Source of the DNA: Sphyrna mokarran
Taxonomy: Eukaryota
DNA length: 64,000 bases
NCBI GenBank assembly: GCA_024679065.1
Contig: JAGIQG010000035.1
Location: 18,786,001-18,850,000, forward strand
Reading direction: 5' to 3'
The notes under the pieces are model-generated. The model did not search any database. It was not told the origin of the DNA and saw only the letters and a list, made by a program, of their open reading frames with translations. Shown piece after piece: positions 317 to 52,800 of the stretch. Each line of letters begins with the position of its first letter. The first letter of the stretch is position 1. Both the position numbers and the translations under genes were made by a program.

Positions 317-631
317 AGTAAGTTTGCAGAGTTACAGAAGAGTTTGTGATTAGTTTTGTGTTGTTAGAGCCCAAATCCACTTCGGCCAAGCAGGTGTACA
401 CCTGTCCATCATCTGACACACTTGCAGTGAAACTGAAGATATTCTGCAATCTTTTATCTTCATCTGGATAACCTTCTTCTCCTGTGGAATTGCTCTGAAC
501 AATCTCACTCCCCCTCAGCCATGTGAGTATGAGTTTATTGTTTGGGTAGACCCTCGGACCAATGCACTCCAGACTATATATTCTGTTAACTTCCAGCACT
601 TCTGGAGGTGAAGTAATGTTTATCTCTCGAT
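317..631 (-). CDS. Gene A exon 3, Ig domain D2
   Basis: Acceptor taacag|AT, donor T|gtaagt, 315 nt. Differs from 47505-47819 at one base. Confidence 0.93.
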
Positions 632-3600
632 CTGTTAAAGGAAGTTAACAGAGTTAACAGAGTGCACTGAAATCATCAATCTGAATATTTATACTTTTCG
701 CCCTGAACTTCAAAAAGTTTACCACTGCTGCCTCACACCTCCAGGGAGCCAGGTTCAATTCCAGTTTTGGATCACTGTCTATACGGAATTTGCATGTTCT
801 CCCTGTGTCTGCATGGGTTTTGTCCATGTGCTCCTGTTTCCTCCCACACTTCAAAGATGTGCAGGATAGATGGATTGGCCGTGCTACATTGCCCCTCAGT
901 GCCCCAAAATATGTAGGTTAGATGGATTAGTGATGGTGAATGCACAGTTACAGGAATAGGGCAGCCTGAGGGTGCTGTCGGAGTGTTGATGTGGACTTGG
1001 TGGATTGAATGGCTTCTTCTGCACTGTAGGGATTTTCTCCTATTCTAAGCTGTTCTATTCTATTCTATGAACTTCCAGCACTTCAGGAGGTGAAGTAATA
1101 TTTATCAATCTGTTAATACAGAATCACAGTTAATAGAACTCACTGAGAAAATGTGTGGAATTTAATTTAGCCTGCTGCTGTGACATCAGGAGAATCAGTT
1201 GGGAGGCAGCATTCTTGGGATCAGTAAAACTATCCCCAGTGAAGTTGAAGGCAGGAAGAGGCTGACATGGATATCATACCTGTTGGTGCTGGGATGCCTA
1301 TTAGATTGATTAATGAACCATTTGATGTAAATCATCTCTGAGCTAACCAGAATTCTGTGGTACATTCAGATATTGAACAGGACTTGTATGATACATGCAC
1401 ATCACCTCCCCACCCCACCCCAACCACCCACTGTTTGGTTACTTCATAAATCCTATCAGGTTTGCCTGTAACTGCTTAGGGTTGCAGGAGAGGGTGGTAG
1501 TGGTGCCTTCTTTGACAGATACTCATTGTCCGATTGAGGGATCTGGCATTGAGAAGGAGATGCTGCTAAAACCTAAGCTTCTGCCCTTCTCTCTGACCAT
1601 CTCTGCTTCCACCACACATATCTTTTCATTCCTGCCCACTCACCTGTGTCCTAGTGTTTTTCCTCAGCCTAAGTCTTGGCGTAACACTGGCAGGAAACAT
1701 TATTTCCACACGTACAGCTGACAGTGGACAACTGGCTGGCTGCATCAGTGGCCAGCAATTCTCAGTGGATATTAACCACCCTGGGCTCCATAAGATAATT
1801 TTCTGTCATGGATCTTAACGGTGGCCAATGTGCTCCCTGAGGTGAGGAATGGAATTGGTCTGCACCCAAAAGTACCACCGCTGGTCAGTGTGCGAATGTG
1901 TGAACAATTCCAGGCACTGGGCAGTTCAGCCACAGTGGATACAAACCTTGACATGTTCCCCACACTCAGTCAGGTATGCTAATTAGATTCATTCATAGCC
2001 TTACTATGAGCAAGTAAAGGAGCTGGAATTTTTCAGCTAACATCCAGTTTCCCAACACAATAAGAGCTGAATGACTGCCTGGTAACATGTATCTTAAGGC
2101 AGATTGGAGTGCCAGCACTCCTGGCATACCTGTAGGCCCTCTCTGTCTGCATGTAGCAAACTCCCCATGGCACTCCATACTATTGGCCTGGCTGCTGTCT
2201 TTTCTGTTTTTTTAATTAAACCTTTCAAACAATTGGTGTTGTGGACAAATCAAAGACTGGCTTTATATCTATTTGAAATGACTTCTCATTTCTAATCTGT
2301 GTGAATGTATGAGCATGTGTTTTATTAATTTTTTTTGCATTTATTAGTGAATAAGTACTCTTTCTTTAACTCAAGAAAGCCTGCTTAAATTGATTCCTTT
2401 TAAAACATAAGCACATTGGGACTGGGAAATGGGGAGGAATCCTTTTTGAATTAACCTTGTTGTGACCAACCAAGGCGATTGAATAAAGAAAGGGAGCCAA
2501 TGCATCCACCCTCAGTCAGAGGCATATATATTTGGGGGTATCCTATCCAGAATTTAATAAATTGGGTCTTGTGCTGAGATAGTTCCCACAGAGGGTATGG
2601 AGTGCAACAAATCTGGGGACCTCACCTGGGGACCTCTTGAAACAATGATGTGGATGGAGGAACTGAAGAGATAGTTATGAAATTTGCTGATGCCACAAAG
2701 ATAGTAAAAAGGTAAGTTGAAAATAAGATGTAAGGTCTCTTAAAAAGGGACATAAGTAGATTAAATAAGCAACCAAAGGTTTGGCAGATTGATTTTAATG
2801 TGAGAAAACAAGAACCTGCCCATTTGGCAGGAAGAATAGAAAAGCAATATATTATTTAAATAGAGAGAGAGTTTCAAAATTTGATGGTACAGAGGGGTCC
2901 AGGTGTTAAAGAAGTTAATATGCTGGTACAGCATGTGATTAGGAAGGTCAAATGTAATGTTGTCATTTATTACGTGAGGTATGGAATATAAAAACAGAAG
3001 TTTTAATGTAGAAGTACAAGACATTAATGAGACCATATCAGGAGTATTGTGCACAGTTCAGATCTATTTAAGAAAGGACATAATTGCTTTCTCTGCTGTT
3101 CAGAGAAGGTTCACAGTGGATTCCTGGGATGGGAGAAGATGATCTTACGAGGAAAGATTGGACAAGTTGAGTCTGTACCTGTTGGAGTTGAGAAGATTGA
3201 GGAGCAAACTTCTTGAACAGGGACTCAACAGGGTAGAAACTGAAAGGATAAATCCTCTTGTGAGAGAGAGTAGAATTAGGGAACACAATTTCAAAATAAG
3301 AGCTTTTAAGATGGAGATGAGAATTTTTTCTCTCAGAGATTCGTCAATCTGTGCAATTCACTTCCCCAGTGAATACAGGAGGCTGGCTCATTGAATAATT
3401 GTAAGGTGGAGGTAAGTAGATTCCTCTTGTCTAACAAAGAAATCAATGGGCATCGGGGAGTAGGCAGAAAAATGGAGCTGAGGCCACAAACAGATGAACC
3501 AAGATCCTGTTGAATGGTTAAGCAAGTTCACGAGACTGAATGACCTTCTCTTGCTATGGGAAGAATGGGCATCTTCAATACCTGAGGAGTTGCAAGTGAA

Positions 3601-6600
3601 ATAGGAAACTGTGCAATCATTAGCAAACAACCCTACTTCTGCCTCTGTTGAGTGGAAAGTCATTGATGAGGCAATTAAAGATAGTTGATACGGCACATTC
3701 TTAAGGATTTTTCTGTAACAACCAGATTTAGCTTGTATCTTGTTGATAGCACATAGAACCATAGAAAACTTCCATCACAGAAGGAGGCCATTTGGCCCAT
3801 CAAGTTTATATCAACCCGAAGACACCTAGGTGGTCTCTCTCATCCCACTTTCCACGGCAAATGCATAGGCTTGTGGAGATAGGGATGTTCTTGGTTAAAA
3901 TGCTCTTATGGAAAGTTGGTGCAGACTTGATGGGCCGAATGGCTTTTTCTGCACTGTAGAGATTCTATGATATCTTGTTTGCTTGACCGTTTCTAGATGT
4001 CACATGGAACAAATTGAATTGACTGAAGAGAGAGCATCTATTCTGATGGGAACTCAGGAGAAGGCCGTCATGAATCATTTACTGCTAAAACCTAAGCTTC
4101 TGCCCCTCTCCTGGCATACCTGTAGGCCCTCTGGCTGAGTATATTGTTAATACCTTGGCACATTCACACAAGTGCGGATCTCTGACAACATTGGGTATGA
4201 GGACATTTGTTGAAACTCCTCCTCCCATTAGTTATTTAATTGTCGACCACAATCCACAATGGGATGGTTGGGACTGTGGCATTGTTGCTCCCTTTGCTTC
4301 GTTTAGAGCAAACATTTACCAAACTGACAAGGACCTAAAAAATAAATGGACCCAATAAATGCTGGCCAGTCAGCGATGCCCATGTCCCATCAATGGATAA
4401 AAAAGCACCTTAAGACAAATCAGCTCCTATGTTGTGAAAGCATCAACACCCTGAGGTGAGATAAAGGCAGTTTGTATTTGGATGAAGAAGATGAAATGTG
4501 GATAAAGTAAGAAATGATGCTTTTTCAAACACTGCTCAGGTATTTGAGTTTCACTATACCTTTACTCAAAAGGCCAGCTCAATAATTCACGATGGAATGG
4601 TAGGTATGAACTTTCTGCTATAGACTCTAAGAGCTGCTTCACCTGTTTCTTCAATCAATGACAGATCATTAATCCAGCTGAGAACAGGATCAAACTGTGT
4701 CTGATTCACTTTAGACCATTCTGACCAGCACTGGGCTACTCTAAATCAGATTCTGGTTCTCACTAAAAACTTTCCCCGACACCACCTTCCTTTAATGCCA
4801 GGTAATCAAATATGTTACAACAAGAGTTTTCACTTACTGTATACCGTGACCACCTTTCTCTTCCCCTTCTGCTGAGAACTCTCCGATTTACAGGTCACAG
4901 TGCATGGTGCTGCAAAGTCCCACGCCTGAACACTCGGGAAATAGTCTCTGTACCAATTACTGCCATTTGTTCTGTCAAAATATATCCCTGGTTTATATTC
5001 CACGGTAATTATTGGGTTTGTACATGTGGTAGTACAGTTCACCTCTAAAGAATCTCCAAATTCCACAGCTGAGGGGTTTGTGTTGATCATGATCTCAAAT
5101 CCAGTTACAATAGCTGCCAAGGAAACAAATCACAATAAATGCAGGAAACGGAAATGCTTTTACTTACAAAATTCATCATTAACTCTCCACAGTAACTGCA
5201 GTTTCATTTTGAAACCATACACTTTTACATGGGAAACTGATGGAAATTAAATCTGATCTGTAAAGGAAACAACAGGAGGTAGCTAAGAATTCAAATTCAC
5301 TAACTGTTGTGAAAACCAGGAGCTAATAAATGTATTTTCCTATTGATAGATTTAAATTTCCCATAAAAATGTAAAGAGCTGTTTTCTGAGGAGGACAAAC
5401 ACGGGACATGGTGGACAGAGTACCCTTCGTCGTCCAGTACTTCCCCGGAGCGGAGAAACCGTAACATCTTATCCGGACTCTTCAACATATCATTGATGAA
5501 GGTAAACATCTGTCCAAGGCCATCCTCACAGCTCCACTTCTTGCCTGCAAACAACCGCACAACTTCAAACAGACCATTCTCCACAGCAAACTATCTACCC
5601 TTCAGGATAACACCACACAACCCTGCCACAGCAACCTTGGCAAGACATGCTGTATCATCGACATGGATGCCATTATCTTACGTGAGAACACCATTCACCA
5701 GGTACACGGCACATACTCTTGCAACTCAGCCAACTTTGTCTACCTGATATGCTGCAGGAAAGGATATCCTGAGGCATGGTACACTGAGGAGACCATGCAG
5801 TCGCTACGACAATGGATGAATGAACACCGCTTGACAATCACCAGAGAAGACTGTTCTCTTCCTGTTCCTCCAGTGGACATGGGCATTCAGTCTTTGATCT
5901 TTGGGTAAACATTCCCCAAGATGGCCTTCACGACACACAACAGCGCTGAATCACTGAGCAGAGACTGATAGCCAAGTTCGGCACACATGAGGACAACCTC
6001 AACCTGGATCTTGGGTTCATGTCACACTATTTGTAACCCCCATGACTTGTCTGGGTTTGCGAAAACTCACTTACTGTCCTGCCTGGAGACAATACACATC
6101 TCTTTAACCTGCACTTAATGCTATGTCCACTCACATTGTCTGCACTTTTACGACTTAATAGCTGTAAAGACTCGCTTCTAATCAGTATTCTGTAAACTGT
6201 GTATGCCTTTATATGCTCTGCTTGTGATCAGAACTCCCCACTCACCTGCCGAAAGGGGTAAACTCTCAAAGCTAGTGGCGTTTACTACCAAATAAATCTG
6301 TTGAACTTTAATATGGTGTTGTGAGGCTTCTTACTGAGAAGAGGTCAACAGAAGAATGGACAGCCCCCTTAGCACTTCAACATTTACAAAGTAGGAAAAG
6401 GGGCTAAAATCAGGATCTGTCCTCCGGGTGAGTGTGGCCTGAGGCTGGGATAGGGAACACTTTTATATCAATGGTGTTCCATTCTTACAGTGCACAGATC
6501 AAAGTCGCTCAGTTTACAAATAACAATACTGAAAATCCTTGCATTGATATCGACCCTTTAACACAGTGACAGGAGTGTTATTAAATAGTGTTATTAAACT

Positions 6601-7341
6601 GAATACCGGTTCCATTACCCAGCAGGAGCGACTGGAAGGAATGTACGAATGACAGAGGCACTGGGCTGTTTTGAAGCGCCCAGGGATTCTTTGTGTGACA
6701 GCATGGTCACTGAACTCTATGTTCCTCATTGCAGCCTCGTACAGATCTGCACAACTGCTGCTTTCATTGTGATGCCAGTAACAACACGCACTAACCGCCA
6801 GCAAGACGAAGTCCACTTGGAAACGTTGTTATTTTATAAAATATTCTGGGGACCGTTTCATTGAGTCAAATGTCGGGCCGGTTGTTCCTAAACTGACCAG
6901 AGTTGGGGTGAGTGTGGAAACTCCATTCAGGGAATCCGCCCCGAGCACTGCAATGAAGCCCGCACCTTCTGTCCTCAATTCCATCGCTGAACTATAAAGT
7001 ACAGAGAAATGGCCACTGCTCTCAGAGTTTTATACACTATACAATAATGGCAGAACAGAATGTGTCAAAGTCACAAATGAGTCGGTTTTTAGTTAGTGCT
7101 GAAGCGGGCCTTTATAGTTCTTTATCGCTGGAAGAAGTCAGACATCGCCAAAGTAATGTTTCATACTGCTGAATTTAAACAGAATAGGCCATTCCACCAA
7201 ATTAACCATCAGATAAAGTGTAGCCACGCTGAATATAATACAAATAGGAATTGACATTGTTTATTTCATCCTACCTGTTATACTGAAAATTACCGGGGAA
7301 ATATAAATACATCCAACCGCTGAATTCAGATTAAAATCCAT
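317..7341 (-). CDS. Gene A: 5' part (exons 1-3) of a second ICAM/VCAM-like paralogue, continuing beyond the window start
   Basis: Join of 7341-7275, 5113-4838 and 631-317. Phase-1 GT-AG introns, open frame, homologous to gene B exons 1-3. Confidence 0.88.
720..1068 (+). mobile_element. tRNA-derived SINE (HE1/V-SINE-like)
   Basis: B-box-like ggttcaattcc, V-domain-like tttgcatgttctccctgtgtctgcatgggttt and an (ATTCT)n tail. Confidence 0.8.
1070..1147 (-). pseudogene. Remnant copy of the D2 splice acceptor plus the first ~40 nt of the exon
   Basis: acttccagcacttcaggaggtgaagtaatatttatc----aatctgttaatacagaatcacagttaa aligns to about 47777-47853, with a 4-nt deletion. Confidence 0.85.
2640..3560 (+). 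mobile_element. Degraded CR1 LINE, 3' part of ORF2
   Basis: Decayed FADDTK motif, tattgtgcacagttc (EYCVQF-like) and LYLLELRRLR. Confidence 0.8.
4838..5113 (-). CDS. Gene A exon 2, Ig domain D1
   Basis: Acceptor ttggcag|CT, donor A|gtaagt, 276 nt. Translation includes NCTTTCTNPIITVEYK...PCTVTC. Confidence 0.92.
5395..6335 (+). mobile_element. Penelope-like retroelement: GIY-YIG endonuclease region and pseudo-LTR
   Basis: YSCNSANFVYLICCRKG..AWY..ET..LRQ.MNEHR, followed by the terminal caaataaa.ctgttg.actttaa..tggtgttgt motif repeated elsewhere in the window. Confidence 0.85.
7275..7341 (-). CDS. Gene A exon 1, signal peptide MDFNLNSAVGCIYISPVIFSIT
   Basis: ATG at 7341-7339, 67 nt, donor ACAG|GTAGG, the same context as gene B exon 1. 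Confidence 0.8.
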
Positions 7342-7394
7342 AATTGCAGAGTTTGGAGAGAATGGTTCCTCACAGTTCCCCTAGGCTGAAGTCT

Positions 7395-7503
7395 GAAACT
7401 GAAAGAGCTCTTCCTGCCTCTGAGGGAGATTCCGTTAGGGATCATTATTATGGAATGCATTACCTTTCCGGGACAAGTTTGGGAGTTAATGCGGGAAATT
7501 CCA
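7395..7503. promoter_or_regulatory. Gene A proximal promoter: IRF-like, two NF-kB and one GAS-like motif
   Basis: GAAACTGAAAG at 7395-7405, GGGAGATTCC at 7424-7433, TTTCCGGGACA at 7465-7475 and GGGAAATTCC at 7493-7502. All lie 50-160 bp upstream of the ATG. Confidence 0.7.
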
Positions 7504-19590: not shown

Positions 19591-19805
19591 TTAGGAAAAT
19601 CCATTTGTAGTTTTCCCATCTGGGTACGAATCAAGTTCAAGATATTCATTTCCATTGGGAATCTGTGGATTGTTGTTGGGTTTTGCTTTGTGAACTTTAT
19701 ACATTCCTCTTTTATGGCCTCTGTATTTCCAGTACAAGATAAAGGCTATGATTATGATGAATGGTAATATTCCTGCCATCGCCAGATTTGGTATACATAT
19801 TTCAC
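19591..19805 (-). CDS. Gene B last coding exon, transmembrane helix and cytoplasmic tail
   Basis: Acceptor tttcatag|GT. Hydrophobic [19 protein letters not shown] is followed by basic [16 protein letters not shown], resembling ICAM/VCAM tails. Stop TAA at 19593-19591. Confidence 0.88.
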
Positions 19806-22800
19806 CTATGAAAACATTCAAAAACATAGTTAATCAAATCTTTGACACTCCCAGGGCAATATATATATTTGACAAAGCAAAGCAAAATCTGTTATAAACA
19901 ATAGGTTTTTTTTTTACAGAATGTCTATCGTGCTATTTTCACTCTTCCCCATTTTTCAACTTCAGCTCCTTTTATTTTTCCCATATCCCATATTTGAGAA
20001 ATATAAATCGGGTGGATTCTCCCAGGCTTTTTCCCAGGGCTGGAATGGTTACTACAAGAGGACACAGGTTAAATGTGTTGGGGAGTAGGTATAGAGGAAA
20101 TATCAGAAGTAAGTTTTTCACTCAGAGGGTAATGGGTGAGTGGAATTGGCTGCCATTGGTGGTGGTGGAGTCAAATTCGATAGAGTCTTTTGAGAGACTT
20201 CTGGATGAGTACATGGGATTTAATGCAATTGAGATTATAGGTAAGTTTAGTAGTTAGGGATATCATCGATATAACTTGTGGGCCGAAGGGCCGGATTGTG
20301 TTGTAGTTTTTCTATGTTCAATGTTCACAGGGGGTCTAATTTTTACGGTGGACAGTTCTAGGTCTCTTTTTATTTACCATGCATATCTACAGGAATTATC
20401 TATCGGTGATGCAGGTCAATTTCTCTCTGTAAAGCTTCAACGTTAAGGATGCCAATATTGGCTCCATAGGGGATATGAGTTTAAATTGAGAACACAGAAT
20501 AATATAAAAAGTGAGGGGTGGGGTGGGGGTAGTGCTAAGACATGTTGGTAGTCTTGTTATCAGCTTTCTTCCCTTTTCTTTTTGGAAGTTTTTGTTTAGG
20601 CTTTTCTATTTCAATCATAAACATGATTCATAGGTGTTCAAATTTTTAATCTCTTCCAATTTGTCACATTATCAACTCATACTTTTGTTCCCATACATGT
20701 AGGCAAGATGGTTTCCCAGAGCTGGTTGAGGAACCAACTAGAGAATGCTATTTTAGATGGATTATTGTGCAATGAAAAAGAGTTTAAATAATAATGGTGT
20801 TGTAAAGAAACCTTTAGGAAAGAGTGACCATAATAGCTTAGACGTTTACATTCAATTTTAAAGTGAAATAGTTCAATCAGAGACTCAGATCTTAAGTCTA
20901 AAGAAAACTATCAATGTATGCTGGACATATCGACTATGGTAGATTGGGAACTATTTTTCAAAGCACAATGGCACACAGGCAATGACTAATATTTAAAGAA
21001 GCAATACGTAGACCGGAATTCATGCCCCTCTGTCACTCCAGCAAGAATGGAGAATTTGGTGCTCAGCGGATGCATTGGTAAAAGCTTTCCAAAAATCCTT
21101 GGATTCTGGAGAAGTACAAGAGGATTGAAAAACTATCAGTGTGACACCCCTATTCAAGAAGAGAGGGAGACAAAAAGCGAGGAACTATCGTCTAACTCAC
21201 CTAACATCTATCATTAGAAAAATGTTGGAATGAATTATTAAGAAAGTAATGATTTGGAAATCATAATCTAATCAAGCAGAGTTAGCACGGCTTCATGAAA
21301 GGGAAATCATGTCTCATCAGCTTGTCAGAGTTTTTCAAGGATGTCTGAACCAGAGTTGATAGAGGAGAACCAGAAGATGTATTGTATTTGGACTTCCAGA
21401 AGGCATTAAACGCAATATCTCACAAAAGGTTAAGTTCCAGTGTAAGATCCTGGAGCCTGGTAATATTGCAGGCGATATATTGCCCCAGATAGGGAATTGG
21501 CTAATGGGCCATAAATAGTAAGTGGAAATAAGGGGTTCTTTTTCAGGTTGGTGACCTGTAACCAGTGGAGTTCCACAGGGATCAGTGCTAGGACTATTTA
21601 AACTTTCATATTTTGTTCAAATAAAATGGTGACAGGGCAAGTTATGAGAGTGATATAAACAGTTTACAAAGAGATATTGATTGGTTAATAAGTGAGCAAA
21701 ATGATAGTAAATGGAATATAGTGAGAGAAAATGTGAAATTGTTCATTTTGGAAGAGAGAATAAATGAACAGTATTATTTAAATGGAGAAAAGCTGCAGAA
21801 AGCTGCAACACAAAGGGACTTGTGCACGAAAGACAGAAAGCTAGCACCCAGGTACAACAGGGAATCAGGAAGGTAATGGATTGTTGGTCCCTATTTCAAG
21901 GGGATTGAGTAGGAAAGTCTTGCTGCAAAATGTACAAGGTACAGGTGAGACCACATCTGGAGCACTGTGAGCAGGTTTGATCCCCTTATTTAAGGAAAGG
22001 TATTATTTCATTGCAGACGGTTCAGAGAAGGTTCACTAAATCATCTCCAGTATAGAGTGATTGTCGAATGAGGAAAGGTTAAACAGGTTGGGATTCTACT
22101 CATTGGAATTTAGAAGGACGAGAGGTGATTTCACTGAAATATCTCGGGTTCTTCAGGGGTTTGACAGGGTAAATGCTGAGAGAATGTTTCTCCTCATGGG
22201 AGGGTCTAGGGTCAGAGGGCAGAGTCTCAGAATCAAGGGGTACCAATTTAAGATAGAGATGAGGAGGAATTTCTTCTCTCAGAGAGTGGAGAGTCTTTGG
22301 AACTCCTTATCAGAGAGAGCTATGGGGGTACATTCCTTGTGTATATTTAAGGCTGAGATTGATTGATTTTTGATCAGGGGATCGAGGGTTACGGGGAATG
22401 TCAAAATCTGTGGGTGGGACTTTGCGACTGTGTTTGCTCCAAAACTAAAAAATCTCTCTAAGGACAACAGATCTTTGCATGGTCTGCCCCCAGCCCGCTC
22501 GAAACTCCATGGAAGATCCCCCCAAGTATCTGTGGTTTCATTTTTCACTGATTTCAATCACGCCTCCCCTCACTGTGAGAATTTAAGATCAGCGACGCAC
22601 TGCATCTCACTGAGCTACCAACACCCTGCACTGTGTACCACAGTTCACTGAGTTACCAACATCCTGCACCGTGTACCACAGCTCACTGAGTTACTAACAT
22701 CCTGCACCGTGTACCACAGCTCACTGAGTTACTAACATCCTGCACAGTGTACCACAGCTCACTGAGTTACTAACATCCTGCACCGTGTACCACAGCTCAC

Positions 22801-25800
22801 TGAGCTACCAACACCCTGCACTGCGTACCACAGCTCACTGAGTTACTAACATCCTGCACCGTGTACCACAGCTCACTGAGCTACCAACACCCTGCACCGT
22901 GTACCACAGCTCACTGAGCTACCAACACCCAAGTATCTGTGGTTTCATTTTTCACTGATTTCAATCACGCCTCCCCTCACTGTGAGAATTTAAGATCAGC
23001 GACGCACTGCATCTCACTGAGCTACCAACACCCTGCACTGTGTACCACAGTTCACTGAGTTACCAACATCCTGCACCGTGTACCACAGCTCACTGAGTTA
23101 ATGGTGTCACTGAGTACCAACATCCTGCACCGTGTACCACAGCTCACTGAGTTACTAACATCCTGCACCGTGTACCACAGCTCACTGAGTTACTAACATC
23201 CTGCACCGTGTACCACAGCTCACTGAGCTACCAACACCCTGCACAGTGTACCACAGCTCACTGAGTTACCAACATCCTGCACCGTGTACCACAGCTCACT
23301 GAGTTACCAACATCCTGCACCGTGTACCACAGCTCACTGAGCTACCAACACCCTGCACCGTGTACCACAGCTCACTGAGCTACCAACATCCTGCAGCATG
23401 GACTGGCAGTGTGTGGGTTCACAGTTGTACCTTCTCTCCTACAGTGTTATTGCCCGCACAGTTTGGGCAAATACAGGGCCAGAGTAAGGTGCTTCTTCAC
23501 AAAAGGAGATGTGGAGACTGGGAGCAAGGAAGTTAGCTCCCAGGTAGGGAAGGACTCTAGGCAGGATGAGAGGCAGGTTAGACAAGTGGGGGAGAAGGGA
23601 AATGTCCAGTCTGAGGGATTGAGCTGTGTCTATTTTAATGCCAGGAGTGTAGTAAATAAGGTGGATGGACTTAAGGCGTGGATTGCTGCTTGGGATTGTG
23701 ATGTGGTGGCCATTACAGAGACTTAGATGTCTCAGGGACAGGACTGGGTACTACAGGTCCCGGGATTCAGATCCTTCAAAAGAGGTGGTGGAGTGGCACT
23801 GTTGATCAGGGACAGTGTCATGGCTGCAGAGAAGGTGGATACCGAGGAGGGAATGTCTACGGAGTCTCTGTGGGTGGAAGTTAGGAATAGCAAAGGGTCG
23901 GTGATGTTGCTGGGTGTATTCTATAGGCCGCCCAATAGTGACAGGGAAATTGAGGTGCAGATAGGGAAACAGATACTGGAGAGATGTAGAAATAACAGAG
24001 TTGTTGTGATGGGAGACTTCAATTTCCAAACATCGACTGGAATATCCCAAGGGTAAGGGATTTGGATGGGGAGGAGTTTGTTAGGTGTGTTCAGGAGGGT
24101 TTCCTGACACAGCACGTGGACAAGCCTACGAGAGGAGAGGCTGTACTGGACCTGGTATTAGCTAATGAACCAGGACAGGTGATGGATCTCTCGGTAGGAG
24201 AGCATCTTGGGGGTGGAGATCATAATTCTATCTCCTTCACCCTTGCATTGGAAAAGGATAGGATCAGGCAGGCTAGGAAGGTGTTTGTCTGGAATAAGGG
24301 GAAATATGAAGACATCAGGCAGATGTTGGGTCGAATAAACTGGAAGGAGGTGTTCTTGGGGAAAAGCACAGAAGGAAGGTGGCAGATATTCAAGGAATGC
24401 TTGTCTGGAGCTTTGCACGACAACGTTCCGGTGAGACAAGGAGGTTTTGGTAGGATGCGGGAACCGTGGTGCACGAAGGCTGTGGTGAAGATAGTCAGGA
24501 AGAAAAGAAAGGTGTATAAAAGGTTCAAAGAGCTAGAAGAGAGCTTAAAAAGGAAATTAGAAGAGCCACAAGGGGTCATGAGAAGGCCTTGGCTGGTAGG
24601 ATTAAGGAGAATCCCAAGGCCTTCTACAAATATGTGAAAAGTAAAAGGATGAGAAGAGAAGGGATAGGACCTATAAAAGGTGAAGGGGGAAAAAGTCTGT
24701 ATGGAACCGGAAGAAATGGCAGAGGTGTTAATGAGTACTTTGCCTCAGTATTCACGGTGGAAAGTGATCTGGGAGGATGCACTACAAGTTTGCGGCAGAC
24801 TGAAAAGATTGAGTATGTAGATATTAAGGAAGCGGATGTGTTAGAACTTTTAAATGCTATCAAGATAGACAAGTCTCCGGGACCAGATGGGATGTACCCC
24901 AGGTTATTGTGGGAGGTGAGGGATGTCATTGCAGAGCCCCTGGCGATGATCTTTGCGTCGTCGATGGAGACGGGAGAGATTCCGGAGGATTGGAGGATTG
25001 CGGATGTGGTCCCTATTTTCAAGAAAGGGAACAGGGATAGTCCTGGAAATTACCGACCGGTGAGTCTGACCTCAGTGGTTGGTAAGCTGATGGAGAGGCT
25101 TCTGAGGGACAAGATTTACGAGCATTTGGAGAAGTTTAGGTTGATTAGAAATAGTCAACATGGTTTTGTAAAAGGCAGGTCGTGCCTTACGAGCTTAATT
25201 GAGTTCTTCGAAAATGTGACTGAACACATTGACAAAGGAAGAGCAGTGGACGTGGTGTACATGGACTTCAGCAAGGCATTTGACAAGGTCCCACATGCAA
25301 GACTTCTTGAGAAGGTGAGAGGCCATGGGATCCAAGGGGCTTTGGCCTTGTGGATCCAGAACTGGCTTGCCTGCAGAAGGCAGAGGGTGGTTGTGGATGG
25401 CTCTTTTTCTGCATGGAGGTCGGTCACCAGTGGAGTGCCCCAGGGATCTGTTCTAGGACCCTTGCTCTTTGTCATTTTCATAAATGACCTGGATGAGGAA
25501 GTGGAGGGATGGGTGAGTAAGTTCGCCGATGACACGAAGGTCGGTGGTGTTGTGGATGGTCTGGAGGGATGTCAAAAGTTGCAGCAGGACATCGACAGGA
25601 TGCAAGACTGGGCGGAGAAGTGGCAGATGGACTTCAACGTGGATAAATGTGTTGTGGTCCATTTTGGCAGATCCAACGGGATGAATGAGTACACTATCAA
25701 AGGTAGGAGTCTTAGCTGTGTGGAAGAGCAGAGGGATCTTGGGGGTCCATAAGACTCTCAAATCGGCCTCCCAGGTGGAGGATGTGGTTAAGAAAGCTTA

Positions 25801-28800
25801 CTGTGTACTGGCCTTCATTCATCTAGGGATTGAGTTCAGGAGTCAGGAGGTAATGCTGCAGCTTTATAGGACCCTTGTCAGACCACACTTGGAGTACTGT
25901 GCGCAGTTCTGGTCGCCTCACTATAGGAAGGACATGGAAGCTATTGAAAGGGTGCAGAGGAGATTTACAAGGATGTTGCCTGGATTGGGAGGCATGCCTT
26001 ATGAAGACAGGTTGAGGGAGCTGGGACTGTTCTCCCTGGAGAGACGAAGGTTGAGAGGCGACCTGATAGAGGTTTACAAGATGTTGAGAGGATTAGATAG
26101 GGTGGACTCTCAGAGACTATTTCCCAGGGCTGAAATGGTCGCGACGAGAGGGCACAGATTTAAGGTGCAGGGAAGCAAGTACAGAGGGGATGCTAGGGGA
26201 AAGTTTTTCACTCAGAGGGTGGTGAGTGAATGGAATCGGCTGCCGTCGGTGATGGTTGAGGCGAACTCGCTGGGGTCTTTTAAAAGACTTCTGGATGAGT
26301 ATATGGGATCCAATGGGATTGGGGGTTATAGATAGGTCTATGGCTGGGTAGGTTTTGATGTGTTCGGCACAACTTGTGGGCCGAAGCGCCTGTTTGTGCT
26401 GTAGTGTTCTATGTTCTATAAAAACGAACAGATGGAAGGGAGTGTCACTCTGAACCACTTGTACTAATGTCCCAGAGAGCAGTCACAGAGTAACATTGTT
26501 AGAAACAGGGAGCAGTTTATACATTTTCCTCTTCATCAGCAAGGATGGAGTGGAAAAGGAATCTTCAACATAATGTCCGGAATTTTACCACCCCATCTAT
26601 GATGGGAATTGAACCAGGCCAGGGGTGGAGCATGGGAAGGTCCGTAAACAGGGTCCGTAAACAGGGCAGGGTTTTATGGTTTCAGGATGAATGAGGCTGT
26701 AAAACCTCACCAATATATAAATAAGAGAAGTTCCAAATCCAATGTGACACTCAGGATTGAGTTAAGGAACTGAAATGCTTTTTCAATTCTCAAAAGCTGA
26801 AGAACTCATTTAGATTCTATACATTATCTGTATTTCACTCTCCGTAGATGGTGCCAAACCTGCTGAGGTTTTCCACCAATTTCTACTTTTGTCTCAAAAG
26901 ATTAATTATTTATCCTTTGAATTCTGAACAATATTACAAACGGACCTGTGACTCTGATGTCCACTTCCTTCACATCAGTTCCATATGGATTGGTAGCTGT
27001 ACATTTATAAATTCCTTGATGTCCTGATGTTGCGTGGGAAATACGGAGGATTCCATGATGAGCAATCTCAATGTTGTTGCCATTACTGGGATCTTCCCAT
27101 TTTATTGTAGGTGTGGGATTCCCATTGGAATTGCAGATCATTGTCACCTCATCACCTTTACTGACATTTACTGGAAATCCTGACACAGTTTTGCTATTTA
27201 CTGAAATGGTTGTGTTTCCTGGTTTATCTGGAAAGAAAATAAACAGTTTAAAATATCCCGTTACACCTGCAGAGTCAATGATGCAGTTTTAGACTGGCTG
27301 AGTATCCAAACTTAAGCACATATTCATCTTCTAAGAACCATTTCAAAGCAGCTAAATGTTGCAGTTGCAGCTTTTAGTACTGTCACTGCCTGGAAATGAC
27401 TCTTTGGCTTCAGTTATTCTATATAGTCAAACAGTGTTATTGTGTAAAATCTAAGTGCTCAGAAGTAGAAGTCTCTTCACTAAAATTTCTTAAAGTACAA
27501 GATCCAATAACACTATACAGGGTGATCCCACAGTGCAGTCTGCATCCAGAGTGCCAGAGGAACTGACACTCTTATTTACAGAGCATGGGGCTTCCTGATT
27601 GGATCACCAATTTGGCCCTTAATCAGAAAGTTCATGTTCAACCAGGTCAGCTGCAACTGCCTGGTTGAAATCGTTACAGAAAATATAAAAATCATCATTG
27701 CAGCCACTGGGCCAAATCTTCCACTCCTTCCTACCGGCTGAACCTTCTGGCTCCCGTCGGCAGGACAGAAGATCCCACCGCTAGCCAATGACAAGCCACC
27801 TCTGCCACTGGAAAACAGGCCATGGGGATTCACTGAAAATCTGATTGCTTAAAAACTTCACAATGCTCAGAATATAGGAAGATTCAAATGTTACATTTCC
27901 TGCAATATGTTATTCACATTAAATGACTGCACTTACAATGAATGAATGTTTTCTTCTATATTATTTGGTGATGTGCACTTGTATAGACCACTCTGCTGCA
28001 TTGATACTAATGGGGTGTGGAGTTTCTCTCTGCTGACTGTCTTTCCATCTTTGGTCCAGAATATCTGTGGAACTGCAGGCAGAAATCTCCCATCTGGACT
28101 AAATCTCATGGCAGCGACGGATGTGTTTCCCATTGTGGGGAATCATGGGAGACCATACCATGCCTTTGATCCCCCAATCTTGTTTGTTATGAACCTAGGG
28201 CTTTAGCGCCATGTGGTGTGGTGGGGCAGGCTTGTTTACATGCATCCCAGCTTCACATCTGGGTGCCCTTTTGAAAAGGTAGTCAACATCACTGACCCAC
28301 ATTGAAGAAAGAAGGTGGATCTCCATGATTACACTGAGGTTGGACAATGGAATTTCTCAATGACACTGAAGGTGGATGATCCATCTAATAGATGCTCTCC
28401 CCACTCAATGCTGTGTTGCTCCAGGGTTCAGGATCATTGACAGCCTTTGTGTTAATTCTGGAGGCATTCTTCAGGCAAGTTTCAACTTCTGTACGCCACA
28501 TTGTTCCAGACATGTTCTGGACTAGTGTTCTTTCCCACAGATGTCACAGACAATTAGGCATGGGGAAAAATTCTATTTGGGCCTTTGATTGCGTCCATTA
28601 TCTGGATAAAATCAGTTTCACACTGGCCATGAGTGAGTTTCAGAATCCATCATGGTGAACTCTAGTAAAAGATACTCTAGGGAATTCATGGCAGCATAAA
28701 ACTGATTTCTGGGCCTGGGAAAATCCCATCCTGGATCCCCACACTATTCTAAATGTGGCCTCAATGGTACCTTGCACAGTTGCAGAAACACCTCTGTATT

Positions 28801-34800: not shown

Positions 34801-37800
34801 TTGAAGGCATGACATCAGCCACAACCAAAAGCAAATAATTTCCTGACCAACACCAAATGACTTCATGGCCTCCAAGGCCAGAGTAACAGCTTTAGACTGA
34901 CTTTCCATCCAATGGTGAGGCCAATACTCCCATACTAAATCATGTCTCAAGCTGGTTGAAGATCAACAGAATTTGTTTGTTCAGAATTAAGGATCAATTG
35001 AAGAGATATTATGCTCCTGATTGGATAATATAGGCCTCCAAATAGTGGCAAGGAAATAGAGGGCCAAATTTTCAGACAAATTACAAGATGCAAGAACTAC
35101 ACAATAATGGTAATGGAAGACATCAATTTTACTAATTTTGATTCGGATTGTAGCAAAGTAAACAGTGCAAAGGATAAGGCACTAATCAAGTTTCCTGATT
35201 AGTGCCTCTCCATCTTAACAAGGAAGGTAGCAATACTATATCTAGCTCTGAGGAACAGGGATCAGTAGCAAATGTTTTTTCTACAAGGTAGCATGTAGGG
35301 AACAGAATCAGAATCAGAATAGTCAGTCATGATAATGGGTATTTGTTAACAAGGCTGAGAATAGTAAAGTGAAGACTTTGTTGGTTTAGAATCATTAAGG
35401 GTCAGTGAGCATTAGGGCACAAGATGAGTGGGATTTATTGCTGCACATTAAGATGCAGATAGTAGAGTTTTGAATAACTTTTAAGTTTTCAGAGGGTAGA
35501 ATGTGGGACACCAGTTGGTAGTGCAATAGCATAATTAAGTCAGGATAGAAAAGAAATGAATGGTGAACAATGGTGTTGCCCAGGGCTCAATATTAGGATT
35601 GCTACTTTTTCCTATATAGTGTACATTAATAACCTCAACCTGGGCAAACAAGGCACAACTTTTGCAGATGACACAAAACTTGGAAAAAATAGTAAAGAAT
35701 GAGAACATTAACAGGCCTTCCTTTGTAGGACAGAGACTAGTGAGATGGGCAGATCCATGGTAGATAAAATGTAATGCAGAGAAGTGTAAAGTGATAGCTT
35801 TCCATGTTCTTCTTACTGAAGTGTAATATGAATTAGATGGCACAAGTTAAAAGGGATGAAGAAATGGTGAGCTGTGGGTGTTTATACAGAAATCTTTGAC
35901 AACAATTGGATCAGCTCTGAAGATTATTAGAAAATGTTATGGAATCCTTGGCTTTATTAATAGAGGCATAGAGAACAAAAGCAAGATAGATATGTTAAAT
36001 GTATATAACCTTATAAATCACTAACCAGGCCTCAACTGGAGGACTATTTTCAATTCTGGAGACAACACTTTTACAATGCCTTGGAAAGGATGCAAGAGAG
36101 TTGTAGAATGGTATAAGAGATGAGGGATATGTGGAAAGCCTAGAAAAGCTGGGATTGTACCTCTTAGCATAGTGAAAACCAAGAGGAGATCTGATCAAAA
36201 TGATGAACCAATTTAGAAGACAAAGAAGGAGAAGCAGTTTTCAGTAGCAGAGCATTGACCAAGGACCCAGATTTAAAATGGTAAGAAAGACAACCAGAAG
36301 TGAGATATGGAAACTATTTTCTCAAACAATTTGTTGTGATCTGGAATGCATCACCTATAATGACAGTAGTTGCAGATTCAATAGTGACTTTCAAAAGTGA
36401 GTTAGGTAATTACTTGAGCTACATACACACATGCAAATCAGGAGCAGAAGTCAGCCATTCAGCCTCACCATACAATAACATCGTGACTGATTTCTTTGTG
36501 GCATCACCTCCACATTCTGAAAACACCCAATCTTCAGTACAATCTTTTTCCACAAGGTTTGGGTAATTAGATCTGTCCTTCAACAGTGCTCAAACTAAAA
36601 GTCAGCCATTCGTTCTTCACAGTGACCAAGCAGGAATGGATGGCTTGGCCCTTTGAGCTGCTTCCTCCTTTCAATGATTTTGCAGCTGATCTGATTGTAG
36701 CCTTAACTCAACATTGCCATCTTTTATCCCCTTGTTTATCAAGAATCTATCCAGCTCTGCCTTAAAAATATTGAAAGATTCTGCTTCCATTGCCTTTTGA
36801 GGAAGAGACTTCCAAAGTCTTAGAACCCTCAGAGAAATGAATTCTCCTCACTTCTATCCTAAATTGGTCTTTTAAACAGTGTTCTCAGTTCTAGATTGTC
36901 TCTCAAGAAGAAACAACCTTTCCACATTCATGACATCAAGATCCTTACATATTTTAACCAAGTTGCCTCTTAATCTTCCAACTCCAGTAGATACAAGCAT
37001 AGCCTGTCCAAACTTCCCTCATAAGACAATCTCCCATTCTAGCCATTGGTCTGGTAAACTTTCTCTCAACTTCCAAGAGATCAATTAAATTTGTTTAGGT
37101 CTGGAAAAAAATCATGAGACTTTCATTGGTCTCTATTTAGAAAATGATGTTACTTACACAAGACACGGAGGGTAGCAACCTGTTTCTTAATAATAGGGCT
37201 TGTCATTGGCTGAACTTGAAGTTTCATTTCAGCCTCACAAATGTACTGCTGTTTATCCAGCTGTGCTTGTACATCCAGAGTATGATAGATAGTGAGCCCA
37301 GTATTGCTCAATTCATTCACTAACACCTCATTTCCATTCTTCAATCTGAGTTGAAGCTGTTCTGAGACATTAAACACACTGCACGTAATATTAACCCGGT
37401 TTCCTTCAAGGATGACTGGTACTTGGATTTCAGGTTCAGAGAAAACTGTAAAAATAATAGAAATACGTGATTAGAAATATTCCCAAGTTTATCCCCTCAT
37501 CGTGATGATAATATTGAGACAAAGGAGCGTATGCTTTTGCTTACTGCTCACTATCCAACTCACTGATGTATCGGATAGATGTCTCAGGCCTCATGGCATC
37601 TTTCACAGGGACATAGGAAATAGGAGCAGGAGTGACCATATGGTCCCTTGAGTTTTCTCTGCTATTCAGATAAATCAAGGTTAACCTTCTACCTCATCTT
37701 GATTTTCCCCACTTTTCCCACATCTCTTTGTATCTTTAATATCTAGAAACGTATGGACCTCTATCTTGAACTTATTAATGACTAAAATTCCACGATCCCC

Positions 37801-40800
37801 AAGATGGAAATATAGAAACTAGGAGCAGGAGGAGGCCATTTGGCCCTTCAAGCCTGCCCTGCTATTCAGATCATGGCTGATTCTTATTATGATTCAATAT
37901 TCTCATTTTCTTCCCTTAATCCTTGATGCCATTAAAATCTAAAAGAGATCTATCTCTTTCTTGAATACATTCAGTGACTTTGCCTCTACAGCTTTTTGGG
38001 GTAGCGAATTCCATAGGTTCATCAACCTCTGAGTAAACAAATGTTTCCTCATCTCAGTCTTAAATGGTTCAGCATTTTATCATGAATCTGCGTCCCCTGG
38101 TTCTAGATTCCTCCTCCAGGGAAAACATCCTCCTTTCATCCAGTCTGTCCAATCCAGTTAGAATTTTACTTTTTAATCTCCTCTCATCTTTCTAAATTCT
38201 AGTGAATGCAGGCCCAGACAAACTAATCTGCCCTCATAGGACAGTTCCACCAACCCCAATATCAGCCTAGGGACCCTCCTCTGCACTCCCTCAATGGCAA
38301 GTAAAACTACATGCAGTATTCCAGGTGTGGTCTCACAAAGCTCTGCATAACCACAGTAAGACATCCCTTATTTCTGAACTCAAATCCTCTTACAATGAAG
38401 AACAACATAACATTTGTCTTTTTAATTGTTTGCTGAACTTTCCTCTCCACTTTCATTAACTGGTGTACAAGGACACCCAGATCCCTTTGTCCATCCACAC
38501 TTCCCAATATATCACCACTTAAATCATACTCTTCATTTCTGTTTTTCATATTGAAGTGTATAACTTCACATTTAGCCACATTGTATTGTATCTGTCATGT
38601 ATTTGTCTATTCAAACAATTTGCCTAAATCACCTTGAAACTTCCTTGCATCCTCCTCACATCTATAATTTTGTGTTGACAGAGAATTTGGAAATTTTATA
38701 TTTGGTTCCCTCATCCAGATCATTTTTATATCTTGTGAACAGTTCCGAATCAAACAGTAATCGCTGTGGTACCCATTAGTTACTGCCTGCCACTGGAAAA
38801 AGACCTATTTTTTCCCACTCTCTGTTTCCTGTCTGTCAACCAGTTCTCGATCTATGTCAATATCTTATCTCTTTTCTCATGTACTTTAATTTGGCTTACT
38901 GATCTCATATGCGAGACTTCATCAGAAGCCTTCTTAAAGTCTAGATATATCACATCTACTGGCTCTCCCTTATTTATTCTACTAATTACATTCTCAAAAA
39001 ACATCAAGATACGATTTTCCTGTGCTTGATTAGCACATCAGGCCAGGAAATACCAGCAGGAGTGGTTACAGGAATAGGGTGGGGGTGGGCCAGAGTAAGA
39101 TATTCTGTTGGAGAGTTGGTGCAGGCTTGATGGATTGAATGACGTCCTTTTGCACTGAAGGCATTCTATGATTCTATGATCAGTGTGAGGCGATGCACTT
39201 GGGCAGGACAAACAATGCAATGAAATACATTATAAATGGAAGGACCTTAGAAAACACGGAAGACCAGAGGGATCTTGGTGTTCATGTACACCAGTCCCTT
39301 CAGGTAGGACAGGTGAATAAAGTGGTGAAGAAGGCATATGGTATTCTTAACTTTATTAGCAGAGGCATAGAGTTTAAGATCAGGGGAGTTAGGCTGGGAC
39401 TAAGTAAAATGTTGTTAGACCAGAGCTAGAATATTGTGTGCAATTCTGGAATCCACAGTATAGGAGGAATGTGATAGCACTGGAGAGGGTCTAAGGATTT
39501 ACGATAGTATTGCCTGGGCTGGAGTTATGAAAAAAGATTGGATAGACTGGGGTTGCTTTCATTGGAGCAGAGAAGACTGAGGGGGAAACATGATTGAAAG
39601 GTGTAGAATTATGAGGGGCTTGGATAGAGTAGACAGGCAGAAACGTTTTACCCTGGTGGAGGGATTAATGATCAGGGGCCATAGATTTAAGTTAAGGGGC
39701 AGGAGGTTTAAAGCGATGTGAAGAAAATCTTTTTTCACCCCAAAGGGTGGTGGGAGTCTGGAACTCACTGTCTGAAGGGATAGTGGAGGCAGAGACCCTC
39801 ACAACATTGAAAAAGTATTTAGATGCCAAGGTGCACAAGGCTATGGACTATATGCTGGAAAATGGACTGGAATAATTGGGTGGTTTGCTTTTGACTGGCA
39901 TGGATGCAATGGTCCAAAGGGCCTTTTTTAATGCTTTAGACTTTAGAACTATCTGAAAAGTGAATATTTTTAGTGGAATTAATTAAAGTATCATTCTATC
40001 CTTATCAAATATATAATCTTCATCATTAACATAACGCTTTTCTCTTGTTAAGTACTGATGTCTTTGTTAAGATGAAACAAATCACTGTGTTTACAATCCA
40101 AATTACACAGTCACTGTTTTCTTATGATCCTCAAGTGTCAGCAACATTTCCTGCAAACCAGGCAATAGCAAGTCTCACAAATATTCTCTGAAGCAGCTTC
40201 CCTTTGATTACATAGGATATATAGCCCAGCAACAGGCCCTCCCACCCAATTAGCCAGCTCTTACGTCCCACTCTGGCTCATTATTGGAATGTGTAAATGT
40301 GTCAATAAACTTCCAAACTCAATAGGAGGGATTTTATTGTTTGAAATGATGTAAATCAGACATGCTGCAATATTAACTACAATGAATTATCTGAATGTTA
40401 TCTGCTTGTAATGATGCCAAAAACAGGATTCTTACCATACACCATAATAGAAATGGTATTATTCTTTGGTGGAACTGATGGATACTTCTCAAAATCAGCC
40501 GTACAGACAACTTGCATTCGACCCGACTCCTGTGGTGTCCATGCTGCAGTTTCCCGGACAGTATTGGAATTTGGCCTTGTTGTTGTTGAATTCAGTTCTT
40601 CACCATCCTGAAACCATCTTACCCTCATTTTCTCAGCAGGATAGACATTCGAGACTTCACATGTTAACGTGGCTTCTCGCTTCACTTCTATGGATCTTTT
40701 GTCGAGGATTCTAGGTGAATCCATAAAAGCTGCAACACGGAGAAGAAATTCACTTCATTTGGATTTGCTGTGATGTGTTTGCATTCCTAATGGACAGAGC

Positions 40801-49800: not shown

Positions 49801-52800
49801 CTTAGAATATGCACATGTTGTGCTGCAGTTTATCTGCAACGAATCTCCAAATTCCAGAACTGGGGGGTTTGTGTCAATCAAAACCTCAAAGCCAACCACG
49901 TTTGCTGCCGAAAAGAAAACAAAGTAAATACAGGGAATACAAGCCATTCAATGTCGGGTGTATTCTGAGTAACTTGCAGAGGTAAAACGAAAAAACAAAC
50001 CTTTCTTCAAAATAGAACATATTGACCTGAAGTAATTTGGAGACTCAAAACCTAACATTATCAAGTTAATTTTAATAAGTAAGTCAGACAGCAATTTCCA
50101 GAGTCTACACAAATGCAGGTCAATGCAGAAATCAGGAAATTGATGTCCGAGTTGTCCTACTCTTCAGCCATTGAAAGATATGAAGATTATAAAGTTGAGG
50201 TATTAATTCACTAGCGATTGTCCATTCCAGTGGATTTCTGTTAGTCTTAATTCATGCAAAATGACTTGCCTTGTATTGTTGGCTTTTGCAAGTTTGAAGT
50301 TTCATTCTTTTAGATTGTAATTTGTTTTGAAAACTAATTTTTTTAGAACATTTTCTTTCTCTATTACCTTAGTCCCATCTTTCATTTCCTTGATTTGAAT
50401 TCTACACTGATTTGACATTAAAATAAATATACTTATGCTCTTGATTCTGACTAATTGGCTGAAATTTTAGGTGAAGACTGGAGTCCCACCAGAGGGACCA
50501 AAGGTGGAAACCAATCATCCCATCTCTACCCCCACCCCACATCCCTGCCCTGGTCAGGGCAGCAGGATCTGGGGTTGCATTTTACCAATGGAGACTAATT
50601 ATCAGACCCACTCCCAAAAACTGCTGACAAAAGCCACTCCAGGGAATTGAGACCCTCAATGCGTGGCCTCAAAGACATGTATGATTCTCTGAAGAACTGG
50701 AGCCAGGCAGGCTGGCCTGGCAACTAGGAAAGTGGAGAGGAAGGTCTTCATGATAGCAGAGGACAGAGGAGGTGACTTTGTATGATAGGGGTTGCCCATG
50801 CCTGTATGGGAGAGGTATTTCCTTTGCCCCCACTGGGGGAGGTTCTTCTTATCCATAGTGTGACAGTTACACTTGAACATATTGAGTGGCAGTTAAGTGT
50901 TAAGTCTCCTTATCTGTGGTACAGGATCTGTTTTTATTATTGCACTTTGGATTGCCTTTTAAAATGGTGTCTCAGTGTCTCAGAGTGTTCTCCTTCCTTC
51001 TGCCATGTCTCCATAGTTAGCCCTTCCTTCCTATTTGTTTCTGTGAGAAAACATTAGTTTCACAGTTCATTACCTCACCAATACATGGCTGGGTGATTTA
51101 AAACAAACATTCAGAACTCTCCATGATGCCACCTCTCTCCTTGGAAACTCTTCCAGCTCGACAGCTCTTCTTCAATTCTGCGTCTGACTTTAACTCTATA
51201 GATTGCAATTGTGGCTTCAATGATAGAGGTTCTGGGATTTGGAATCAATTCCTACATCTTTCTGTTGCTCTTGCACTCTGTCTCTTTCTATTTCTCTAGC
51301 TATCTATCTTCCTTCTCCAAAAAATCTGTCCTTTTGTTCAAACTTTAGGACATCTGCCCTTGTACCTCCTTCCTAGGCTTGGTGTTAAAGTTTTTTGGTA
51401 ATGTTTCAGTGTTGGACTTAGAGCCTGTGTTGCTGGCTCTATTCAGCCCCGCCTGTTGAGTGTGACATTATGGGCACAGCCAGCTGATCACACAGTGCTT
51501 CAGATTATTGTGAGAAAACCTAGCTGTGCAGCCTGTAAACTGCAAGTCAGTTTTCTTGCCTCATTCAGAACTCCATGCAAATAACTGAAGATTATGCCCC
51601 TTGTCTTTCTAGATGGCAACTGTCATGGTTTGGGAAGTGATGTCTAAGGAGACATGATGACTTCCTACAGTGCATTTTGTAGTTGCTATTCAAGGTGGAG
51701 GGAGTGAACGGTTCAAGTGACTGATTAGGTATCAAGCAAGCTTTGTCCTGTATGGTGTTAAACTTCTTGAGTGTTGTGTTGCTCTCACCACATCCAGGCG
51801 AATGGAGAGTATTCATCACCCTCCTGACTTGTGCCTGTAGATGCAAGACCAGATTTGGGAAGTCAGAAGATGACTTACTCTCCACAGAATGCCCAGTCTG
51901 TGACCTGCTTATGTACTACAATATTTATATGGTTAATCTGTCCAGTTTCTAGTCATTAGTAACGCTCAGGATGTTAATAATGGGAGATTCAGTGATGGTA
52001 ATGCCACTGGACGTCAAGAGGAGAGTCTTTCTTGTTGGAGATGTTCATTACATGGCACATGTTTGGCTTAAATGTTACTTGCCACTTGTCAGCCCAAGCC
52101 TGAATATTGTCCAGTTTTTCCTGTATATGGGTACAAATTACTTCAGTATGTAAGGAATCATGAATGGTGTTGAAAATGATGTGATTAGCAGCAATCCCAC
52201 TTCTCACTTTATTTTGGAGAGAAGGTCTTTGATGAAGCAGCTGGAGATGTTTGGGCCTAGAACATTATCCTGAGGAATCTGTGCACTGATATTCTGGAAC
52301 TGAGATAACTGACCTACAACAACTACAACCATCTTCTTTTGTGCCAAATATGACTTCAACAAGGGGATTGCCACTGACTGCAGTTTTGCCACCCTCAGTG
52401 AAATGCTACCCTGATGTCAATGGCAGTCGCTATCACCTCACCTCTTTAGTTTAGCTCCTTTGTCCATGTTTGGACTTTAAAGGCTGTAGTGACATTAAGT
52501 GCTGAGTGGCCCTGGCTGAACCCAAACTGAGGGTCAATGAATGAGTTAATGCTGAATAACTGCTACTTGATAGCTCTGTGGATTATCCCTTTTATCATTT
52601 CCCTGATCATCAGGAGTAGTCTGATAGGGTGATAATTGACAAGGTTGGATTTGTTCTATTTTTGTATACAGGACATTCCTGGGCAATTCTCCACATTGTT
52701 GGATAGATGCCAGTGTTATGGCTGTACTGGAACAGCTTGGCTTGTGCAGGTGTTCTGGAGCACAAATCTTCAATAATATTCTTCCACCGCCTGTCTGTAT

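Follow-up and report, generated by a model that had tools for sequence, protein, structure and literature searches.

Gene conversion that homogenises only part of a gene has been described in several families of tandem paralogues. In sharks, conversion has been reported at scpp/sparc-L and, as far as that source extends, not in rays (PMC9122587); shark globins group by species, with batoid globins more mixed (PMC13023373). Here we analysed a 64,000-nt stretch of the Sphyrna mokarran genome (assembly GCA_024679065.1, contig JAGIQG010000035.1, C938:18786001-18850000, forward strand; hereafter the window), which contains two genes of an ICAM-like cluster, gene A (copy g4) and gene B (copy g5). 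The exons encoding their second immunoglobulin (Ig) domain (D2) are nearly identical within strongly diverged surroundings, very probably as the product of recurrent, DNA-templated, non-allelic gene conversion across paralogues that predate the shark-ray split.

The cluster resembles each described system in part. As with sparc-L and scpp, tandem paralogues apparently older than the shark-ray split are converted in discrete exon-centred regions, and the converted parts group species-wise in sharks whereas ray sequences form paralogue clades (PMC9122587); unlike those two genes, converted in their 5' exons, the ICAM cluster has eight copies in three classes with one internal Ig exon held in common, and lamniform sharks partly escape too. 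Mammalian TLR1 and TLR6 also show region-limited, independently repeated conversion, with one region in which paralogues resemble each other more than orthologues do and an N-terminal part that keeps its orthology (PMC2077338), but there a tract of ~300 codons into the TIR domain is exchanged in a two-gene pair within mammals, whereas here the tract is a 315-nt intron-bounded exon of much older paralogues. The clustered protocadherins are likewise an adhesion cluster with a domain-specific collapse of synonymous divergence (dS), in EC5-6, and a less affected N-terminal part; their conversion takes place within one large exon and is limited in elephant shark (PMC2764143), whereas that of the ICAM cluster is intron-bounded and strong in sharks. 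The CEACAM1 paralogues, finally, form an Ig-superfamily cluster in concerted evolution from which the domains of some members escape, yet in CEACAM32 conversion is confined to the leader and introns (PMC7042247), the reverse of the present case, in which introns escape and the Ig exon is held. In the searches made, which did not extend to subscription journals and supplements, we found no report of concerted evolution in ICAM genes or of a shark ICAM cluster; the process is already known, and within that scope what is new is the family, the island formed by one exon and how old that island is.

Results

Genes A and B belong to different paralogue classes (4 and 5, respectively) and are both encoded on the minus strand. 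Their D2 exons (317-631 in gene A, with ICAM-2 D2 as best PDB match, and 47505-47819 in gene B; both 315 nt, with AG/GT ends and phase 1/1) are identical at 314/315 nt. The sole difference (580 versus 47768) is ACA/ATA, Thr/Ile, and there are 0 synonymous differences at ~71 synonymous sites, confirming the counts of a first-pass annotation made from the DNA alone. The exons encoding the first Ig domain (D1; 4838-5113 and 49635-49904) share only 50/92 aligned residues (54%, against ~55% first estimated by hand), with 6 gap positions, dS of 1.10 and non-synonymous divergence (dN) of 0.32, and the leader exons (7275-7341 and 57406-57475) have diverged as strongly as had been claimed, with 8 residues in common out of 22-23. 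The accompanying statement that the introns diverge within ~10 nt of the splice sites holds for exact matching, which covers 7 nt on the upstream side of D2 and 10 nt on the downstream side, but not for overall similarity, which extends ~70 nt into the downstream intron, with 6 differences in its first 40 nt.

The longest identical run between genes A and B across the D1, D2 and membrane-proximal Ig exons was 304 nt, compared with a permutation maximum of 106 (2000 permutations), and the probability of finding 0/71 silent differences at the synonymous divergence of D1 (p 0.57) is ~7e-27. Chance is excluded as the source of the D2 identity. Taking 3/71 silent sites as the upper bound, with a synonymous rate (Ks) of ~0.2 per 100 million years (My), as quoted in PMC9122587, we estimate that the latest exchange between the two D2 exons took place within roughly 20 My.

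A search of the genome with D2 DNA gave 13 matches, comprising eight full exons on C938, three on contig C302 and two short fragments. C302 was dropped as a source of extra copies: it duplicates C938:18.876-18.942 Mb, and five exons showed 0 differences between the two. The eight D2 exons (g1-g8) span C938 18.656-18.926 Mb, are 96-100% identical to that of gene B and differ from one another by 0-15 nt in those pairs that were counted, and the introns upstream of them fall into five mutually unalignable types. Among the eight copies we found 18 variable sites in mosaic patterns, with five site pairs showing four gametes; 4-5 of the 18 variants are silent, which is the neutral ratio. Between gene B (g5B) and the class-8 copy g8, nucleotide differences numbered 95 in D1, 3 in D2 and 113 in the proximal Ig exon, corresponding to dS of 1.17, 0.014 and >1.3 (1.38 for g5B/g7), so that in this pair D2 stands out as an island with a saturated exon on either side.

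The intron edges bear on the nature of the template. A reverse-transcribed, spliced mRNA would rewrite the exon only, and identity does end 5-10 nt from the exon in many pairs, in a window rich in interspersed repeats. We nevertheless consider a cDNA template very improbable, and favour a DNA template over a spliced one because 31-32 intronic nucleotides at the D2 acceptor (47820-47851 in gene B) are identical between g5B and the class-8 copies g7/g8; the class-4 copies g1/g2 match 17 of them, and the ~70 nt of similar downstream intron between classes 4 and 5 likewise could not have been carried by a spliced template.

Homogenisation is not restricted to D2. D1 is not exempt from conversion, a correction to the first-pass annotation: the class-4 D1 exons (g1, g4A and g6) show dS of only 0.02-0.03 between flanks alignable for only 17-92 nt. 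The leaders of these genes have 18/20, 21/22 and 20/23 matches, each to a different Mustelus protein (P0024 for gene A), against only 4-7 matches with one another, and are separate old lineages.

We then compared 61 shark and ray proteins from about 20 other species (database clustered at 90%), keeping 70 D1 and 80 D2 rows, 56 shark rows for approximately unbiased (AU) tests and 38 rows for rooted trees; D2 matches shorter than 98 aa (P0056, P0061), D1 pieces shorter than 78 aa and duplicates were left out of the trees. Identity to the D2 of gene B was 79-91% in full-length shark matches; in rays it was 62-78%. Three old paralogue classes can be told apart in D1. Class 8 occurs in both sharks and rays, and class 5, to which gene B belongs, in carcharhiniform and orectolobiform sharks; class 4, the type of gene A, was not resolved as a single clade. 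Because class-8 D1 is present in both groups, this class predates the shark-ray split, dated at ~270 My (PMC13023373).

In sharks, D2 clusters by species or near lineage, as the first-pass annotation had predicted, and D1 by paralogue. Over the 56 shark rows, the D1 tree requires 2 class changes, against 19 for the D2 tree; AU tests rejected class-wise D2 clades (class 8 and class 5; p-AU 8.9e-44 and 3.6e-13) and also an own-species D1 clade (4.7e-7). The closest D2 was a same-species paralogue of another class in 16/23 rows, including 16/16 non-lamniform shark rows. Class-8 D2 of lamniform sharks and rays departs from the prediction in being closer to its orthologues, with within-species identities of 87-88% and 51-66%, respectively. 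There are 9-10 class-diagnostic columns in D1 and none in D2, and species-diagnostic D2 residues were found in 4/10 shark species having at least 3 copies.

Recent exon shuffling, or duplication of whole genes in each species followed by fast D1 change, would also yield similar D2 exons within a species. The cluster does contain recent multi-kb duplications or swaps: g3 and g4 are 97.3% identical over 12 kb, the g6 gene holds four tandem 1651-bp repeats (C938:18865992-18871226), each with an intact proximal Ig exon, and a block common to g3 and g6 stops 11 nt upstream of D2, as fits a crossover in D2. However, orthologues of the D1 classes and of the leaders occur in different orders, silent sites in D1 are saturated as well (dS ~1-1.4), and the introns on both sides are unalignable in most pairs, which would demand two exon-edge breakpoints every time. 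Such birth and death is an improbable account overall, and for cross-class pairs these data already largely refute it.

The fate of the stalk differs by class. The third Ig domains of classes 4 and 5 are 95-100% identical within species and 66-89% identical between genera, with the closely related Chiloscyllium and Hemiscyllium as an exception (92-97%), and therefore this stalk does evolve in concert; the corresponding claim of the first-pass annotation stands between classes 4 and 5 and fails for class 8, which shares D2 alone. Its picture of D1 as a diversified tip needs correcting, in that the A/B gap reflects an old paralogue split and gene B is 88% identical to its Mustelus orthologue in D1 and equally so in D2. 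D1 does change faster than D2 over longer spans, as identity to orectolobiforms is 57-58% for D1 versus 83-84% for D2. Of 23 changes in class-4 D1, 21 are replacements and 2 silent (p 0.016-0.10, depending on the assumed silent fraction), and D1 dN/dS between classes is ~0.3; the expected positively selected sites in D1 are hinted at in class 4, at a level that is only suggestive.

Sequencing runs provided a further view of D2. In run X1, possibly the source sample, the D2 core forms one contig with a depth of 92 versus 15.5 for unique intron; in run X9, from another organism, the values are 43 versus 6.7, with D2 substitutions of its own and 97 substitutions in ~1350 nt of intron. Depth does not equal copy number, only ratios within a run are compared, and the run contigs (Logan) drop rare variants. 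An assembly artefact, in which polishing or collapse placed one D2 sequence into all loci, might be suspected for near-identical exons in a repeat-rich cluster with a redundant piece (C302), seen here in one genome assembly and in run contigs. The 18 mosaic variable sites, the raised D2 depth within both runs, the private substitutions of X9 and the same pattern in proteins from many separate assemblies make it scarcely credible.

D2 is not ultraconserved, since it differs at 8/261 nt in X9 and 11/286 nt in run X20, silent changes included. Constraint at the nucleotide level (an RNA structure or regulatory element) acting without conversion could draw on the small number of silent changes among the between-organism differences listed, 1/8 positions in X9 and 2/10 in X20. 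Even so, D2 in X20 changes at a rate similar to that of D1 (9/224), shark D2 proteins differ by 9-21%, contrary to the invariance between distant species that such constraint would entail, and constraint alone cannot yield species-specific residues common to several paralogue classes; we regard it as highly implausible.

We next consider the identity of the family. D1 of the two genes matches Pfam ICAM_N (PF03921) at 37.4 and 27.9 bits (cut-off 21). The four Cys of D1 (C-x3-C twice, two disulfides) are present in 70, 70, 69 and 70 of the 70 D1 rows, and a Glu that aligns with that of the ICAM-3 'LET' motif in 70/70; gene B has all four Cys and the invariant residue as Glu40. We take this Glu, at the end of D1 strand C, to be the ICAM-type acidic ligand of the MIDAS (metal-ion-dependent adhesion site), as opposed to the loop Asp of VCAM/MAdCAM. 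In integrin ligands, the residue supplied to the MIDAS metal is Glu or Asp (PMC10886500). A D1-D2 model of Mustelus P0020, a relative of the window protein, reached a predicted local distance difference test score (pLDDT) of 86.9, and its top 16 Foldseek ranks were held by ICAM-5, -2, -1 and VCAM-1, a fold that cannot separate ICAM from VCAM.

The cluster is flanked by two single-exon sphingosine-1-phosphate receptor genes (L093:4763-5935 and L114:1410-2498), an S1PR2-like gene at C938:19.16 Mb and a second S1PR at 18.56 Mb (best match S1PR1); no other neighbours of the human ICAM locus were found among the 147/514 flank open reading frames scanned. The human ICAM1/4/5/3 genes are placed between S1PR2 and S1PR5. 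The shark genes share with mammalian ICAM-1/2/3/5 an ICAM_N D1, the four Cys, the Glu, the D1-D2 fold and a transmembrane (TM) exon, and the S1PR genes on both sides may be a further point in common, but they differ in that identity is only 20-26% and no one-to-one orthologue is assigned. These features support the initial assignment to a shark ICAM-like adhesion gene family, whose proteins are likely, by analogy, to be integrin ligands acting through the invariant D1 Glu, with D2 as its supporting domain. In nurse shark, Icam3 has been named as a myeloid marker (PMC10529500).

Gene B lies wholly within the window, with seven exons (leader, five Ig exons and TM) in one open 577-residue frame, and matches Mustelus P0017 at 501/578 positions. 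Besides the leader, D1 and D2, these are the third Ig exon (40436-40729, script label D3X), the fourth (37158-37445), the membrane-proximal Ig exon (26946-27227, script label D4) and the TM and cytoplasmic exon with its stop (19591-19805), all on the minus strand; leader and TM exons were located by homology to shark proteins, a hydrophobicity scan having missed most of them. An Ig exon remnant on the same strand (27963-28070), outside the gene model, is intact in other sharks (Carcharodon P0022). The D1-D2 splice joint (CT..AC, 47819-49635) is present in runs X2 and X20; that these are RNA is no more than a guess, no matching run being on record as RNA. The proximal Ig exon differs by 6 nt from the gene A copy, with flanks likewise common to both, and the TM exon sits in a 6.1-kb block 99.2% identical to the region downstream of gene A, whose own proximal Ig and TM exons lie beyond the window and whose leader, D1 and D2 lie within it.

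The D1-D2 intron of gene A contains a decayed D2 acceptor with the first ~50 exon nt (1061-1152, minus strand, with a 4-nt deletion), scoring 50 against g5B, 49 against g8 and 34 against its own acceptor, g4A. The g3 intron has an equivalent fragment (C938:18751663-18751752). Both resemble the class-5/8 acceptor more than their own and may be left over from an earlier state of conversion.

Around gene B, a 442-bp inverted duplication (49006-49447 / 50978-51420, 440/443 identical) brackets the D1 exon. These are its only two matches in the genome; it has ~2x single-copy depth in run X1, and its second copy is barely covered in run X9. The duplication looks recent, and could affect the gene through inversion of the D1 exon or pre-mRNA pairing. 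Three tandem-repeat arrays lie in or beside gene B (22521-23403, 44780-47228 and 57751-59507), one stopping ~280 nt downstream of its D2 and another just upstream of its leader.

Elsewhere in the cluster, g1 has the layout D1-D2-TM, and the g6 repeats may let stalk length vary with copy number. Copy g7 is a D2-proximal Ig-TM unit adjoining g8, for which no D1 was found, and no intact TM exon was found for copy g2. Together, g8 and g7 (C938:18904434-18926408) resemble a single class-8 gene whose D2-Ig-TM 3' unit has been duplicated; of the two TM exons, the first encodes a 3-4 residue tail and the second a full tail, possibly as alternative 3' ends. The third Ig exon also occurs in 5'-truncated form in g3 (C938:18744106-18744234) and g6 (18872486-18872614), and there are degenerate D1 copies at C938:18702062-18702307 and 18677365-18677466. 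Many public shark protein models (P0001-P0015) contain the D1-D2 unit repeatedly, as many as four times, and may be true chimeras or the result of read-through between neighbouring genes.

Discussion

We observed bounded silent-site identity, mosaic sites and conflicting domain trees, in agreement with the exon-limited gene conversion first proposed for the A/B pair with its diverged flanks. In the mechanism that we propose, strand exchange between neighbouring copies would rewrite any exon still similar enough to pair, and conversion would break off a few bases into each intron, at the limit of homology. D2, the slowest-changing of the ectodomain exons compared, would never have left this pairing range, where we place it because it is the most conserved of three domains among class-8 orthologues in 13/13 species; the D1 exons of classes 5 and 8 and the proximal Ig exon of class 8 would have left it. 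Conversion would in this way renew the similarity on which it depends, a homology trap that lineages can leave, as rays and, it appears, lamniform sharks have done for class 8. Crossovers inside D2 may also shuffle heads and stalks, since the multi-kb swap between g3 and g6 ends so close to the D2 acceptor.

Several points weigh against this explanation. Slow evolution of D2 could be an effect of conversion and not its cause, and ~270 My is a long persistence for a neutral trap, so that selection may contribute. The species-wise D2 pattern is broken in 7/23 rows (5 lamniform, 2 ray), and the closest D1 is the orthologue in 23/23 rows by a partly circular comparison, the classes having been drawn from the D1 tree. 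Multi-kb duplications and swaps are present, and crossing-over accounts for g1/g2, g3/g4, g3/g6 and g7/g8. The cross-species data are mostly predicted proteins without DNA for dS, many from fused models in which some D1-D2 pairings are possibly wrong, and the trees rest on ~100 columns with many open forks.

Selection for one common D2 surface (a partner or cis-dimer interface) would qualify the conversion explanation: conversion acts, unconverted D2 variants would be purged, and D2 would persist for that reason. The island does persist over the five shark orders sampled, the class-8 D2 stands alone between two neighbours that have diverged completely, and the same argument has been made for TLR1/TLR6 (PMC2077338). 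Against this, rays and lamniform sharks manage without a common class-8 D2, as their within-species identities attest, variants among the eight copies occur at the neutral ratio, and other exons convert likewise when similar. We consider such selection possible, yet on balance doubtful.

For conversion as we propose it, the cluster offers a natural experiment on when concerted evolution ends, with D2 held and its neighbouring exons saturated, and rays and lamniform sharks show that the D2 exon itself can escape; the question of threshold versus selection is testable with existing genomes. In practice, D2 reads will cross-map between copies and many public models of the cluster look fused, and the orthology of shark ICAMs is to be read from the leader, D1 class and tail, not from whole proteins. 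More tentatively, sharks, unlike rays, might hold single exons of ~270-My paralogues in perpetual conversion lineage-wide, with D2 as a hub that joins leader-D1 heads to stalks and tails in a modular integrin-ligand repertoire. If so, the ICAM D2 would be the third locus, after scpp/sparc-L and the globins, at which sharks group by species and rays by paralogue.

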